From Oceanispirochaeta sp. (GTDB lineage Bacteria > Spirochaetota > Spirochaetia > DSM-2461): a stretch of 64,000 nucleotides of DNA. The stretch spans positions 1 to 64,000 of the forward strand of contig CAXXXD010000003.1 in NCBI GenBank assembly GCA_963663385.2. Reading direction: 5' to 3'. Made by a program: the position numbers and the translations under genes. Positions 56,579 to 61,322 of the stretch are shown one piece after another; positions within the stretch are counted from its first letter, which is position 1, and each line of letters starts with the position of its first letter. The notes beneath the pieces were generated by a model. The model searched no databases. It was not told the DNA's origin and was given only the letters and a program-made list of their open reading frames with translations.

Positions 56579-58399
56579 CTAATTCAGCAGAGCCCTGGTT
56601 TGCTGATCTTTTAACTGAAAAAAGGATACCGTTCTTTCCAGCATATTAGCCTGTTCCGCAAGGTCTTCCGAGGTAGCGGATATCTCCTCCGAAAAACTGG
56701 CGTTCTGCTGTACAACCCTGTCCAGTTGCAGAATCGCGCTGTTTACCTGTTCGACACCCGAACTCTGTTCATTGCTGGCTGCGCTTATCTCTCTTACCAG
56801 TTCGGATGTCTGCTTAATATTCACTATCAGTCTGGAGATCATTTCAGCTGCGGATTCCGCACTTTTACTCGTTTCCTGAGAGAGTTCGGTTATCTCCCCT
56901 GCGGCTTCCTGACTGTTCTCCGCCAGTTTCCTGACCTCAGATGCCACGACGGCAAAACCCTTGCCGTGTTCTCCCGCTCTGGCTGCCTCAATGGCGGCAT
57001 TCAGAGCCAGCAGGTTTGTATTTCTGGCAATTTCCTGAATAATGGAAATCTTCTCTATAATTGATTTCATGGCTTCCACAGCTTCTTTTACAGCGGCTCC
57101 GCTCTCTTCTGCATCCCTGGCAGCCTGTTCCGCCATTTTCTCGGTTTGCATGGCATTGTGGGCATTCTGGGAAATATTCGAGCCCATTTCCTCCATAGAG
57201 GCGGATACCTCTTCCGCTGCTGTCGCCTGGGAGGAAGCTCCTTCCGACATCTGTGCTGTGTTGGAGCTGAGCTGAACACTGCCCGATGCAACAGAACCGG
57301 ATGCTTCCATAACCTTCCCGACAACATCGGCTATCTTGACAGACATTTCCCGCAGGGCATTGGCAAGGTCTCCCACCTCATCATTCGTATAAACATCCAG
57401 AGTGGCATTCAAGTTTCCCCCCGCAAGTGTATTGGCAAACTGTACGCCCTTCTGCAGAGATCTGGTAATTCTGTTTAATATAGTTATGAAAACAAACAGG
57501 GAAATAAAGACTATGACAACCAGCAGGATAATGACATTCCTGACAAAGGCTGTCAGAGTAGAGGTAAATTCCGCAAGCGGGTAGGCAACGATCCATGTGG
57601 CTTCTTCATATTTCATGGCACCGTAAAAGGTATCGTTCAGCACCTTAAAACCCTCTCCCCTTACAGATTGTAAAAAGAACTTAAGCTCTTCGTCATTAAG
57701 GGATTTTCCAACCTTGTTCAATTCGGTATGTCCCATAATTGTAAAATTATTATCTATAAGAAAGGCTGTTCCATTGTGCGAGATCTGGAGACCTTCGAAA
57801 GTACTGGCAACGGAACTGGATTCGATTACACTCTGCAGCTCCTTTGGCGTAATTCCAATCTGTACAATCCCCGGAGCATCTTTTCTGGCCACTCCTATAT
57901 ACTGGAACAGTACTTTATCCACACCTCTGGGCGCCGGATCCTGAGCCAGGGTCAGGTCAGGATCCTTCAGAATCCGGAGGAAGGGTTTTGTCTGCTCCGA
58001 GGTTGCAAAATCAAACCCGAAAAATCCGGGAATATTCCCCCACCGGAGTACACCCTCGCCGTCGGTTACATGAATCTCGTCTATTCCGATCGCCTCGGCC
58101 AGGGCAGCCATGTTCTCCGTTTCGATTAAAGCGGGATCTGTCTGGATTGTTTCTGCAACAGATTTGGCAATACGGATGAAATTTTTATTAAGGGATTCTT
58201 TCAGAATATTAATCTGTTCCTGGGAATCCTTCAATGCCGTGGTAATCTCAGAAAGCTGCTCTTCAGCTGTAAGAAGCATCAAGTCATCGATGGAATTTCT
58301 CTGAAGTACATAGGAATAGGTTGAAACCAGAACGAGCGACACAATAAGGATCGCTGATATGGGAAGCAATATTTTAGTTTTAACACTGAGTTTTATCAT
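56579..58399 (-). CDS. Methyl-accepting chemotaxis protein
   Basis: TM-sensor-[40 protein letters not shown]. Confidence 0.96.
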
Positions 58400-58460
58400 T
58401 ATACAAACTCCTATAAAAAGTCAATCATAAGCCTATTAACAAGCTTACAATTGAACCGGA

Positions 58461-59573
58461 TTACCCAGTTTTTACGGCATTGAATGCAGCCGCCTGCATC
58501 TTCAAGTACTTATCATCCGGAACCATCTTCAACGGATCAAAGGGTTCACGGGTTTTCAATATGGAGTACACTACCGTACTCATCTTTCTTGCAGAGGCGA
58601 TAATACTCGTGCCGCTGCCCTTGTTCTTCTTCATCGCTCTGTACTTCGTCATGATACGGTAATTGCCAGTCGTTTTCCGAGTTCTAACCATTCCCATAAC
58701 ACACTGAACAAATGCCGTTCTCAGTTCTACAGCCCCTCTCTTTGTTATATGCCCATGATGAATCGTCTCATTGGAGTTCTGCACCCATGGTACAAGACCG
58801 GCATAAGCCGAATACTTCTTGGCACTGGCGTACCGCTTGATATCATCCGTATAGGCCCTAATAGTCGATGCCGTTATCAATCCGACTCCCGGGATCGTCT
58901 GCAATAACTGTACATCCTCATCTTCCTTTACAAGTTCCAGCAGGACTTTCTCTAACTGCTTGACCTGGTTCGAAACCTGATCTATCGTAGAAAGCAGCGG
59001 TTCTATCGCTTTGGCAGCGCTTCCGAAACTCCTATGGTCCACGAGACCGATGAGGATGCGCTGCCTTTCTTTTTTACTCTGCAGCGCAGCTCTTTTTGTT
59101 TCAATTCCATACCCTAGAAGCAGTCCGTGAACCTGATTCTTCAAAGATACGACTGATTTAACAAGGATAGTTCTGGATTTAAGAACTCTACGGATATCCT
59201 CACTCTCCTGAGAACAAAGCTGTGATTCGGGAAGCATATCTTTTTCCAAGAACTCTGCTAGAGTTCTGGCATCATGCTTATCCGTCTTTTTCACTGATTC
59301 ATTTACAACTTTGAATTTCAGTGTATTCACAACCACCACCTCAATCCCTGCTAGCAATAGCTTGTTACGGAAGAACCGGGCATTTCCTGTTGATTCCACT
59401 GCAGCCCTAACATCAAGGCCCTCTTCTGTATAGGACACTGCTTTCTCAAGAAATGCTCTGTAACCGTCCTCAGAGGTCGGATACATTCCTGATTCACAAA
59501 TGCTTCTATCATCACTCAGGAAACAGACTGTTAACTGGGATTTGTGCAGATCCACTCCGATACTCATCTTCAT
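58461..59573 (-). CDS. IS110 family transposase/recombinase (DEDD + Ser)
   Basis: IGVDLHK, AVEST, KTDKHDA, TIPGVG, YAGLVP..QNS, ITKRG; start set at ATG 59573 after AGGAG. Confidence 0.95.
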   Translation of the reverse strand: MKMSIGVDLHKSQLTVCFLSDDRSICESGMYPTSEDGYRAFLEKAVSYTEEGLDVRAAVESTGNARFFRNKLLLAGIEVVVVNTLKFKVVNESVKKTDKHDARTLAEFLEKDMLPESQLCSQESEDIRRVLKSRTILVKSVVSLKNQVHGLLLGYGIETKRAALQSKKERQRILIGLVDHRSFGSAAKAIEPLLSTIDQVSNQVKQLEKVLLELVKEDEDVQLLQTIPGVGLITASTIRAYTDDIKRYASAKKYSAYAGLVPWVQNSNETIHHGHITKRGAVELRTAFVQCVMGMVRTRKTTGNYRIMTKYRAMKKNKGSGTSIIASARKMSTVVYSILKTREPFDPLKMVPDDKYLKMQAAAFNAVKTG

Positions 59574-59584
59574 ACCTTCGCTCC

Positions 59585-59742
59585 TATTGCCTAAAACAGC
59601 GCCTGTACGGTGAATTGATTCCATTCTCCTATCCGGTCTCGAAGACCATTGAATGTTTCGGTCACGGCTCTTCATTCTCCTGTACGGTCTCGGAGACCAG
59701 TAAAAATGGCGAACAGTAACCTGGCTGTTCTAAACGATGTTT
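59585..59742 (-). ncRNA. Putative IS110 bridge-RNA-like noncoding RNA (approximate limits)
   Basis: About 190-nt left-end noncoding region downstream of TACAAT; GAACAG/CTGTTC stem and two similar structured modules CATT..GGTCTYCGAGACC..AGGAGAATG. Confidence 0.6.
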
Positions 59743-60116
59743 AGAACATTGTATCAATCCACAAGCCTATGAAGACTTTTTATCATTCCTCCTGTAATAG
59801 AATTTAAAAATCTGTTCACTTTAAATAACGTATAAATGAACTATCTAAACCAATCCTAAAAAAACGTGGTATAGAGTGCTTGGTATCTCTATGAAGTATT
59901 GTGATTATTGAGTAGGGATAGTAATGCCCGTTTGTTAATTCTGTGAAGGCCGAACGGCCCGTCTCATGACAGCGGCCATCCTGCCCGGTAAAAACACCAG
60001 CTCAATTCAGCTCCGTTAAAAATACGTTTCCCGGGAGTCAAAGGCATATCAAATAAGTGGTATTAAAGATCATATATTTTGAAGAGATATCGGGGATCAG
60101 GGCTTATAGTAGGGAT

Positions 60117-61322
60117 ATGAAAAAGAAAACCCCTGTGATTTCCGGCCTTTTATCGCTCTCTTTTATTGCCTTTATCTCCCTGGGACTGCCCGACGGCTTA
60201 CTGGGAGTCGCCTGGCCGGGGATCCGTCAGGATTTTTTCCTGCCCCTTGATGCATTGGGATCCCTCCTGGTTTTTTCCACGACCGGTTATATCCTGTCCA
60301 GTTTTTTCAGCGGAACCTTTGTCCGGCTGCTCGGATTGGGAGGCCTTCTCAGCATCAGCTGTTTCATTACGGCATCGGCTCTTCTGATCTACTCATTTAC
60401 ACCCTTCTGGATTCTTTTTGTTCTCTCCTCCATGCTGGGAGGAGTCGGGGCCGGAGCCATTGATGCGGGTATTAATACATATGTTGCCGGGAACCATAGT
60501 GAAAGGATGATGCAGTGGCTTCATGCCAGCTTTGGAATCGGAGTAACCCTCGGCCCACTTATCATGACATTCAGCATTGTTCATACCGGATTCTGGCAGC
60601 GCGGGTACCAGACTGTTGCCGCAGCGCAGCTGGTTCTGGCCGTCGTCTTCTTTACGACCCGATCATGGTGGAAGGGTCGGAAATACGAAGATGCTGTTCA
60701 GGAAACAGATCCTGTCAGTTTAACGGATACCCTCAAAGTCCCGGCCGCCTGGCTTGGTATGCTGATATTCCTGTTATACACAGGTGTGGAACTGGGGACC
60801 GGACTCTGGTCCTATACACTGCTTACCGAGTCCCGGGGAATCTCGCCGGGGACAGCCGGATTTGTAACAGGCAGCTACTGGGGAATGTTCACGCTGGGAA
60901 GAGTCCTGGCCGGATGGTATGCGCGGAAACTGTCTGTGGGGAATCTGATTTATATCAGTATCTTTCTGGCTCTTGCGGGAGTCCTTTTAATTTTATGCAA
61001 CATACATAACGTCCTGACCGTGGCAGGTTTTGTTTTAACAGGATTGGCAATCGCCCCTGTTTTTCCGGGGCTTGTTTCCGATACGGGAAACCGGGTCGGT
61101 TCGGAATTCGAGAAGCATACAATCGGGATGCAGATAGCGGCCGCCGGTGTGGGGGCCGCCATTATTCCGTCACTGGCGGGTGTTTTCGCCAGAATATTCG
61201 GGCTGGAAGTCATACCGTTTTTTATCCTGACAGCCCTGATCCTTTTGCTATTCTTTTTCCGTTTATCCCATGGTATGAAAAAGAACCGTCAGCCCGTAAG
61301 AGAGTCGTCCCTTACGGACTGA
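60117..61322 (+). CDS. MFS transporter
   Basis: FISLGLPDGLLGVAWP, GAGAIDAGIN, WLHASFGIG..LGP; about 12 TM. Confidence 0.9.
   Translation: MKKKTPVISGLLSLSFIAFISLGLPDGLLGVAWPGIRQDFFLPLDALGSLLVFSTTGYILSSFFSGTFVRLLGLGGLLSISCFITASALLIYSFTPFWILFVLSSMLGGVGAGAIDAGINTYVAGNHSERMMQWLHASFGIGVTLGPLIMTFSIVHTGFWQRGYQTVAAAQLVLAVVFFTTRSWWKGRKYEDAVQETDPVSLTDTLKVPAAWLGMLIFLLYTGVELGTGLWSYTLLTESRGISPGTAGFVTGSYWGMFTLGRVLAGWYARKLSVGNLIYISIFLALAGVLLILCNIHNVLTVAGFVLTGLAIAPVFPGLVSDTGNRVGSEFEKHTIGMQIAAAGVGAAIIPSLAGVFARIFGLEVIPFFILTALILLLFFFRLSHGMKKNRQPVRESSLTD

Follow-up and report, generated by a model that had tools for sequence, protein, structure and literature searches.

The sequence analysed here (the window) comprises 64,000 nucleotides (nt), positions 1 to 64,000 of contig CAXXXD010000003.1 of Oceanispirochaeta sp. 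(assembly GCA_963663385.2), and carries on its minus strand, at 58408..59793, a whole insertion sequence of the IS110 family, delimited by copies with defined ends and by an empty site. The comparative evidence given below makes it very probable that the left end of this element, upstream of the recombinase gene, encodes a bridge RNA whose guide order is reversed relative to IS621 and ISEc21, as it is in the seekRNAs of the IS1111 elements. The region contains two near-duplicate structured modules; as module 1 follows the host flank and module 2 follows both ends of the element, we interpret the region as encoding a bridge RNA in which module 1 is the target loop and module 2 the donor loop. 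The first-pass annotation, made from this one sequence, had suggested a bridge RNA with compact, duplicated loops wired unlike those of IS621, and comparison with relatives bears this out, as both modules appear to covary as guide loops, in the reversed order.

The recombinase gene (58461..59573, minus strand) encodes a DEDD RuvC-like domain and a Tnp domain with the serine, as identified by Pfam, NCBIfam and structure alignment. The product matches PF01548 (DEDD_Tnp_IS110, E = 8.5e-21) and PF02371 (Transposase_20, E = 4.5e-19), and it scores 228 bits with the NCBIfam model NF033542, ‘IS110 family RNA-guided transposase’ (cut-off 140). When it is aligned with IS621 (8wt6) and ISCro4 (9t56), its catalytic residues (Glu, Asp..Asp and Ser) are all in register; the recombinase gene is intact, as had been assumed from the sequence. 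The likely start is ATGAAGATG (MKMSIGVDLHK), situated 7 nt past the gene's own AGGAG at 59585-59581, and the MK/MR-MS beginning is kept in relatives. The nearest named relative is ISLin1, with about 30% protein identity; the other matches from plasmid annotations are labelled just ‘IS110 family’.

The genome contains ten copies of the element (99.9-100% identity), and no IS110-family genes other than these copies were found in it. All ten copies have the form ...tTAC|AGGAG-GAATGATAAAAAGTC ... GACTTTTTAT-AGGAG|w-r-a-a-a-a-ATG, with AGGAG at both junctions; hence the length of the element is 1386 bp with both copies of AGGAG included, or 1381 bp if the single shared AGGAG is set apart. The left end, between the terminus and the recombinase gene, is 220 nt long (59793-59574), and the right end extends for 53 nt after the stop codon. 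The left terminus (59784..59793, minus strand), set by the copy ends, consists of AGGAG (59793-59789) and GAATG (59788-59784), the latter being the presumed right donor arm, which covaries with the 5' side of module 2. It is followed by the left subterminal inverted repeat ATAAAAAGTC (59774..59783, minus strand), a perfect reverse complement of positions 58422-58413 that is kept in relatives. The right terminus (58408..58424, minus strand) comprises a -35-like TTGACT (58424-58419), the right inverted repeat GACTTTTTAT (58422-58413) and the terminal AGGAG (58412-58408). Thus the subterminal repeat is perfect over 10 bp, and in a circular junction AGGAG and GAATG would form a 10-bp spacer separating its two halves.

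The site of insertion is defined by a contig of a related strain (run X6), which joins position 58407 to 59789 and skips 1381 nt, with five ambiguous letters, thus yielding the empty site ttacAGGAGtttgtataATG. From this site it follows that the element sits inside a Shine-Dalgarno sequence and is co-directional with the host gene. The host left flank is TAC (59794..59796, minus strand), which is seen in the flanks of the ten copies, is present in the empty site and would be read by the UAC of module 1. The right flank (58397..58407, minus strand) is tttgtata followed by the ATG (58399-58397) of a methyl-accepting chemotaxis gene (56579-58399). In the related strain of run X6 the element is absent from this locus and present elsewhere in the genome; therefore, the insertion is polymorphic and probably recent. 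Among the flanks of the ten copies, T is found at position -3 in seven, A at -2 in nine and C at -1 in nine, and as one copy carries A in place of C, the base before AGGAG is derived from the host.

For a wider comparison of targets we used 76 related loci from public genomes. The AGGAG end pattern is common to every family with readable ends, and an ATG lies 3-9 nt past AGGAG in 47 of 50 copies (19 of 22 lineages). The spacer between them is 6 nt in 28 of the 47 copies, while the background share of 6-nt spacers is 25%. As for the free sites of the own genome, an ATG is situated 4-9 nt downstream of 193 of 1444 ACAGGAG sites and of 36 of 339 TACAGGAG sites. The insertion is orientation-specific and occurs in the 5' untranslated region, in the same direction as the host gene; nothing is duplicated beyond the shared AGGAG, and the terminal AGGAG of the element restores the ribosome-binding site of the host gene. 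The left junction after insertion can also be read as a 10-codon mini-ORF (open reading frame), AGGAG-GA-ATG ATA AAA AGT CTT CAT AGG CTT GTG GAT TGA (59788-59756, minus strand), which begins 2 nt past the host Shine-Dalgarno sequence, a spacing that is probably too short for efficient initiation.

Covariation was analysed in an alignment (A1) of 29 distinct left ends, that is, the window and 28 relatives with 53-79% protein identity. The alignment omits repeat copies from multi-copy families (L012-24, L029, L046-56), the group with 32-39% identity (L067-70, L072-79, L081-85), and truncated or rearranged left ends (L041, L043, L062, L065, L066, L071).

Module 1 (59673..59708, minus strand), the candidate target-binding loop, has the composition CATTTT-TACT-GGTCTCCGAGACC-GTACAGG-AGAATG at 59708-59673, exactly as first described. 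Its 5' side is CAU followed by UUUUAC (59708-59700), the hairpin occupies 59699-59685 and is marked by compensatory pairs, and the 3' side is UAC-AGGAG (59684-59677), followed by AAUG. Over the lineages the 3' side has the form G-NNN-AGGAG, and the last two variable bases match positions -2 and -1 of the host flank, in the same sense. Column 151 matches flank position -2 in 21.2 of 27 lineages, compared to 9.6 expected, and column 152 matches position -1 in 27.8 of 29 lineages, compared to 18.1 expected; none of 300 shuffles was as high in either case, and the covariation of the left target arm corresponds to z = 6.6 and 5.5. Within multi-copy families, guide and flanks agree as well: in the L045 family the guide is UUA and the flanks are TA in five of five cases, and in the family of the window the guide is UAC, with the flanks given above.

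Module 2 (59622..59655, minus strand), the candidate donor-binding loop, likewise has the composition given by the first-pass annotation, CATTC-AAT-GGTCTTCGAGACC-GGATAGGA-GAATG at 59655-59622. Its parts are the 5' side CAUUC (59655-59651), the hairpin (59648-59634) and the 3' side AU-AGGAG (59632-59626), again followed by AAUG. The 5' side is antisense to GAATG, the first five bases of the element past AGGAG: columns 179-183 pair with element positions 6-10 in 97.9% of 145 cells, with 12 compensatory changes compared to 3.2 in shuffles (0 of 500 as high), and slid controls reach at most 40.7% paired. Examples of such changes are GCACG/CGUGC, GCATG/CAUGC and GTATG/CAUAC. The 3' side AUAGGAG is identical to the right terminus ATAGGAG and is invariant across lineages; hence the ATAGG core, which had been noticed in this module as a possible chance match, is a real one. 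Another possibility, that the AAUG after AGGAG in both loops is a handshake guide, was considered and dropped, since AAUG is unchanged in lineages with the left terminus GCACG. As each loop reads two bases and AGGAG in the sense of the left arm, it would pair with the bottom strand, and on the top strand the donor loop would additionally read five right-arm bases.

These observations allow one to distinguish between several alternatives. If the structured left end were a mere 5' untranslated leader controlling the translation or stability of the recombinase, with the loops serving as decoy ribosome-binding sites or protein-binding hairpins and the target being chosen by the protein alone, one would understand why both loops contain a Shine-Dalgarno-like AGGAGA and why the region directly precedes the recombinase start. 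Such a leader would not, however, be expected to have two loop bases that track the host flank across lineages, nor five loop bases that track the terminal DNA of the element better than their partner in the RNA. Moreover, ISLin1 has guide matches of 7-8 nt on both sides of an unrelated target, and the protein family is both named and shown to be RNA-guided. We consider the leader explanation very unlikely, even though one further feature, the segment near the recombinase Shine-Dalgarno sequence discussed below, has a regulatory look.

The second alternative is an ordinary IS621-type bridge RNA, with the bottom-strand guide on the 5' side of the loops (PMC11208160, PMC11208158), the reversed order being an artefact of mis-set ends or of a stem taken for a guide. 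Like that of IS621, the RNA is encoded in the left end; within the RNA, CAUUC has GAAUG as a second possible partner, paired in 89% of cells; and since AGGAG stands at both ends, the crossover point is ambiguous by 5 bp. The intramolecular stem, though, shows no compensatory pairs despite its 89% pairing, and the ends are set by 10 + 15 + 12 copies and one empty site. In every lineage it is the 3' side that matches the left flank in the same sense and the 5' side that is antisense to the left terminus, an arrangement that flipping the DNA cannot convert to that of IS621 while the RNA stays on the recombinase strand. No match in the IS621 order was seen: apart from a T-run, the 5' sides resemble neither the left flank nor the right terminus. 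ISLin1 has the reversed order too, with long, unambiguous guides. We therefore regard this alternative as improbable and retain the bridge RNA with reversed guides.

The left-end region is also strongly structured, as its minimum free energy is -68.8 kcal/mol compared to the mean of -51.9 (standard deviation 4.6) for 200 shuffles, none of which was as good (z = -3.7). RNAalifold applied to A1 yields 26 pairs, 12 of them with compensatory changes. A structure of 33 pairs has 95.3% of cells paired, slid controls giving at most 45.7%, and 74 compensatory cells compared to 24.2 in shuffles (0 of 500 as high), so that structural covariation is present among the left ends. Compensatory changes occur in four of the five tested helices, namely, in the outer helix (GUGGA.../...UUCAC), in the long arm bearing module 1, and in the hairpins of both modules. 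The outer helix P1, known from the minimum free energy fold, encloses both modules, with the 5' strand GUGGAUUGAU (59753..59762, minus strand) and the partner AUCAAUUCAC at 59619-59610; its five tested pairs are 95.8% paired, and four have compensatory changes. This also settles the role of ATCAATTCAC, which had been proposed as a near-match to the donor: it is the 3' strand of the RNA helix with GUGGAUUGAU. In the long arm (helix 2), the 5' strand GGUUAC-UGUUC (59711..59721, minus strand) has its partner at 59660-59670, according to RNAalifold and pair counts; it is 94.9% paired, and three pairs have compensatory changes.

One stem of the first-pass annotation was not retained. Its strings, GAACAG (59730-59725) and CTGTTC (59716-59711), are present, but the stem is not conserved (67.8% vs 68.7% in shuffles, 29 relatives); instead, CUGUUC pairs with GAGCC... 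across module 1, in a helix with compensatory changes.

The strand that gives rise to the RNA can be read from the pairs themselves. At columns 186/201 all 29 sequences have a U-G pair, at columns 122/149 28 of the 29 do, and many single-side changes from G-C to G-U occur as well; since such pairs in the conserved helices would be mismatched on the opposite strand, the RNA shares its strand with the recombinase gene. The same pairs bear on a third alternative, namely that the conserved hairpins act as DNA, in the form of left-end cruciforms or hairpins to which the recombinase binds. The hairpins are indeed less than 200 bp from the terminus, and subterminal inverted repeats exist, but each conserved G-U pair would turn into an A-C mismatch in the complementary DNA strand, and published relatives use RNA; so we find the role as DNA extremely unlikely.

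Upstream of the modules, a 5' stem-loop UGUUCUAAAC / GUUUAGAACA (59726..59748, minus strand) is predicted at the same place in 29 of 29 relatives, though the sequences are unrelated. Segment a'', CUGUUUUAG (59591..59599, minus strand), located just upstream of the recombinase's Shine-Dalgarno sequence and just past the outer helix, can pair with the 3' strand of this stem-loop (59726-59736; A1 columns 226-262), thus providing an alternative complementarity. In every lineage this segment is a near-copy of the 5' strand of the stem-loop, and the duplex between the segment and the stem-loop is more stable within the own lineage (-13.8 kcal/mol) than with other lineages (-7.7 kcal/mol; Wilcoxon p = 2.4e-6). 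Two folds that exclude each other are suggested by these values; they might form a switch that couples folding of the RNA to translation of the recombinase or to 3' end formation. The competition of this segment for the stem-loop is the regulatory-looking feature that speaks for the leader.

Several of the related loci have broken left ends. L064 (1256-1500) has a 13-nt tandem duplication, GAGACCGTGAAGG, within the target loop, and the left ends of L041, L043, L062, L065, L066 and L071 are truncated, interrupted or decayed, one of them with an insertion in the donor hairpin. All these are probably dead copies.

A number of points weigh against the bridge RNA with reversed guides, or limit its reach. 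The first concerns the right arm of the target. For the 5' side of module 1 (CAU and six variable U-rich bases) no junction-anchored covariation with the right flank was found, either position by position or in shifted registers. A register-free test yielded 3.17 vs 2.76 (p = 0.025) for Watson-Crick pairs and nothing when G-U pairs were allowed, and the pairing of the 5' guides with the presumed AG core is inconsistent, column 121 being C in only 6 of 29 sequences. At the left arm, column 150 matches flank position -3 in 7.8 of 26 lineages compared to 6.4 expected, which is not significant. Covariation between the RNA and its target across insertion sites, which had been named as a check at the outset, is thus seen at two bases of the left arm, while the right arm gives no junction-anchored signal. 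Further, AGGAG in the two 3' guides and AU in the donor guide are invariant and hence yield no covariation signal, and the shuffle controls ignore relatedness among the 29 sequences. The Rfam scan of 58000-60300 produced two chance-level matches alone (E = 5.7 and 6.7) and no matching family. The right-left circle junction was found in none of the contigs of four sequencing runs, although contigs drop rare forms. Part of the strong bias towards sites in front of an ATG may be due to counter-selection of insertions within genes. None of the 14 sequencing runs listed for the element is recorded as an RNA run. Finally, we infer the transcript, its ends and its binding by the recombinase from the sequence.

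If the 5' side of module 1 is anchored at the start codon rather than at the junction, so that CAU stands opposite ATG, the six-base complementarity sum is 50.8 compared to 40.4 (standard deviation 3.6), with 0 of 1000 shuffles as high, and this is the best of 18 registers (z = 2.84). Taken together with the excess of 6-nt spacers and with the pairing of CAU and ATG (within GAATG) in the homologous donor loop, this signal makes it plausible that the target loop may read the spacer and the start codon.

The mechanism that we propose would proceed as follows. The bridge RNA would be transcribed from the strand of the recombinase gene and would fold, from 5' to 3', into the 5' stem-loop, the outer helix and two near-duplicate arms, each with a stem, internal loop and hairpin; arm 1 would provide the target loop and arm 2 the donor loop. 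On the model of IS621 and the IS1111-type elements, the right and left ends would be joined in the excised circle and thereby form a promoter for both the RNA and the recombinase gene, and the DEDD/Ser recombinase, held by the RNA, would exchange strands within the AGGAG shared by the donor and the target. The left inverted repeat contains a -10-like TAAAAA (59782-59777), preceded by TG at 59785-59784; so, counting from the sequence, the joined ends would read TTGACT, 17 nt, then TG-n-TAAAAA, and both parts are conserved in relatives. We infer that such joining would create a putative promoter at the junction, of the kind known from both the IS110 and the IS1111 groups.

The right end also contains a terminator-like hairpin followed by CTTTTTAT (58421..58454, minus strand), identified by a consensus scan. 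It has 15 pairs, G-T included, and shares bases with both TTGACT and the right inverted repeat. Should it stop transcription, the downstream host gene would need its own promoter or a hybrid one.

To our knowledge, bridge RNAs are the only guides that specify both recombination partners. In the literature on bridge RNAs and IS110 that was searched, we found no description of a bridge RNA that lies in the left end and has the guide order of IS1111, and none of one that targets Shine-Dalgarno sites, although some supplements outside the search may hold more; nor was ISLin1 found named alongside bridge RNA, seekRNA or IS110 in the literature since 2024. The ‘new programmable recombinase variant’ of the first-pass annotation is therefore a variant in its layout, the system itself being already known. 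The best-studied layouts, those of IS621/ISEc21 and of IS1111, differ in both the guide order and the location of the RNA, and a clade mixing the two shows that these features are separable, besides supplying definite sequences with which the kinship of both groups can be tested. A short guide (two variable bases and AGGAG), together with restoration of the site, would open thousands of tolerated landing sites fed by host promoters, and such targeting may explain why 10 to 15 copies are found per genome. To those who build tools, it offers a further ortholog, compact and wired differently, but no new principle.

Bridge RNAs have been predicted in 85.7% of IS110 elements (PMC11208160), and a 2026 preprint modelled 32,190 bridge RNAs with 86 covariance models. 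The element resembles IS621 in that the RNA lies in a long left end, upstream of a DEDD/Ser recombinase, the target loop varies among lineages while the donor loop is conserved, the promoter (here predicted) is split over the right-left junction, and the core is CT/AG-like. It differs from IS621 in the guide order, which is reversed in both loops, with a 7-nt same-sense guide on the 3' side and a top-strand guide on the 5' side; in the sequence common to donor and target, 5 bp (AGGAG) here compared to 2 in IS621; and in the subterminal inverted repeats, 10 bp compared to 2-3 bp. The proteins align weakly outside the C-terminal domain. With the IS110 group in the narrow sense (IS621 and ISEc21) the element thus shares the long left and short right ends, whereas neither its repeats, which in that group are absent or 2-3 bp long, nor its guide order agree with this group.

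In ISEc21 the guide order is the same as in IS621, and in IS1111 elements it is the opposite, with the complement of the top strand coming first (PMC11187229). The element of the window agrees with the IS1111 type (ISEc11, ISKpn4, ISPa11) in having the top-strand guide first in both loops (PMC11187229), in its 10-bp subterminal inverted repeats, which fall within the 7-17 bp of that group, and in orientation-specific insertion with nothing duplicated past the shared bases. The IS1111 seekRNAs, found in elements with subterminal inverted repeats, are located downstream of the recombinase gene (PMC11187229), whereas here the RNA is upstream; the likeness is one of guide order, repeats and insertion. 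‘A few’ IS1111-type elements with an upstream non-coding region, for example ISMtsp17, are mentioned in the same source, unanalysed there (PMC11187229).

An IS110-family element with a similar position in the genome is IS900 of mycobacteria, which is reported to insert in one orientation between the ribosome-binding site and the start codon. Its recombinase gene is antisense to the host gene, whereas in our case the two are co-directional. The complementary strand of IS900 carries the hed ORF, which is without its own ribosome-binding site and start codon (PMC8141618). No target consensus for IS900 was found in the literature searched.

The layout recurs in ISLin1 and in a family from Lentisphaeria, both of which appear to combine a left-end RNA with the reversed guide order. 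ISLin1 (Leptospira interrogans) has an upstream non-coding region of about 250 nt with the same loop layout and the same order, an AG core on the RNA-sense strand, and a donor loop whose 3' side reads AUAGGAG. Its target is different, being a repeated palindromic element (TTCATAG|AGAGCG) rather than a Shine-Dalgarno sequence, and its guides are clear, 7-8 nt in both arms. The 5' side of the target loop, CGCUCUCU, is the reverse complement of AG+AGAGCG (right flank), and its 3' side, UUCAUAG, is identical to the left flank plus AG. The ISLin1 copies (L087-L089, L. interrogans plasmids, at about 915-2295) sit in the palindromic repeat …AACGCGATTCATAG|AGAGCGTTG…, and an unoccupied target repeat is found nearby. 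In L089 the loop is UCCGUAG and the left flank TCCGTAG, as against UUCAUAG/TTCATAG in the other copies; judging from these matched changes, L089 is a case of natural retargeting. In the order of the source data of Siddiquee (PMC11187229), ISLin1 stands beside ISMac14, ISMba and the archaeal ISH18, ISHvo9 and ISHvo10, and a deep-branching group with exceptions is described in the text of that paper (PMC11187229).

The Lentisphaeria family (33% protein identity; CP091727, L072-L085) also inserts at AGGAG and has the same 10-bp circle spacer. About a dozen copies are situated at (a/g)aAGGAG, 4-9 nt before an ATG, and the 3' side of the donor loop, AUAGGAG-G-AUGGU, reproduces the donor junction over both arms, apart from one additional base.

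Tentatively, and with more doubt than confidence, we suggest that the family of the window may, along with ISLin1 and the Lentisphaeria family, stand for a third, deep-branching architecture of bridge RNAs, possibly an intermediate in the move of the RNA from one element end to the other, in which the target loop may read the Shine-Dalgarno sequence by its 3' guide and the spacer with ATG by its 5' guide (CAU+N6), on opposite strands. If so, the element would seek gene starts genome-wide, ride host promoters and give the host gene a replacement ribosome-binding site, and the lineage would stand beside IS621/ISEc21 and IS1111, with the RNA location of the former and the guide order of the latter.

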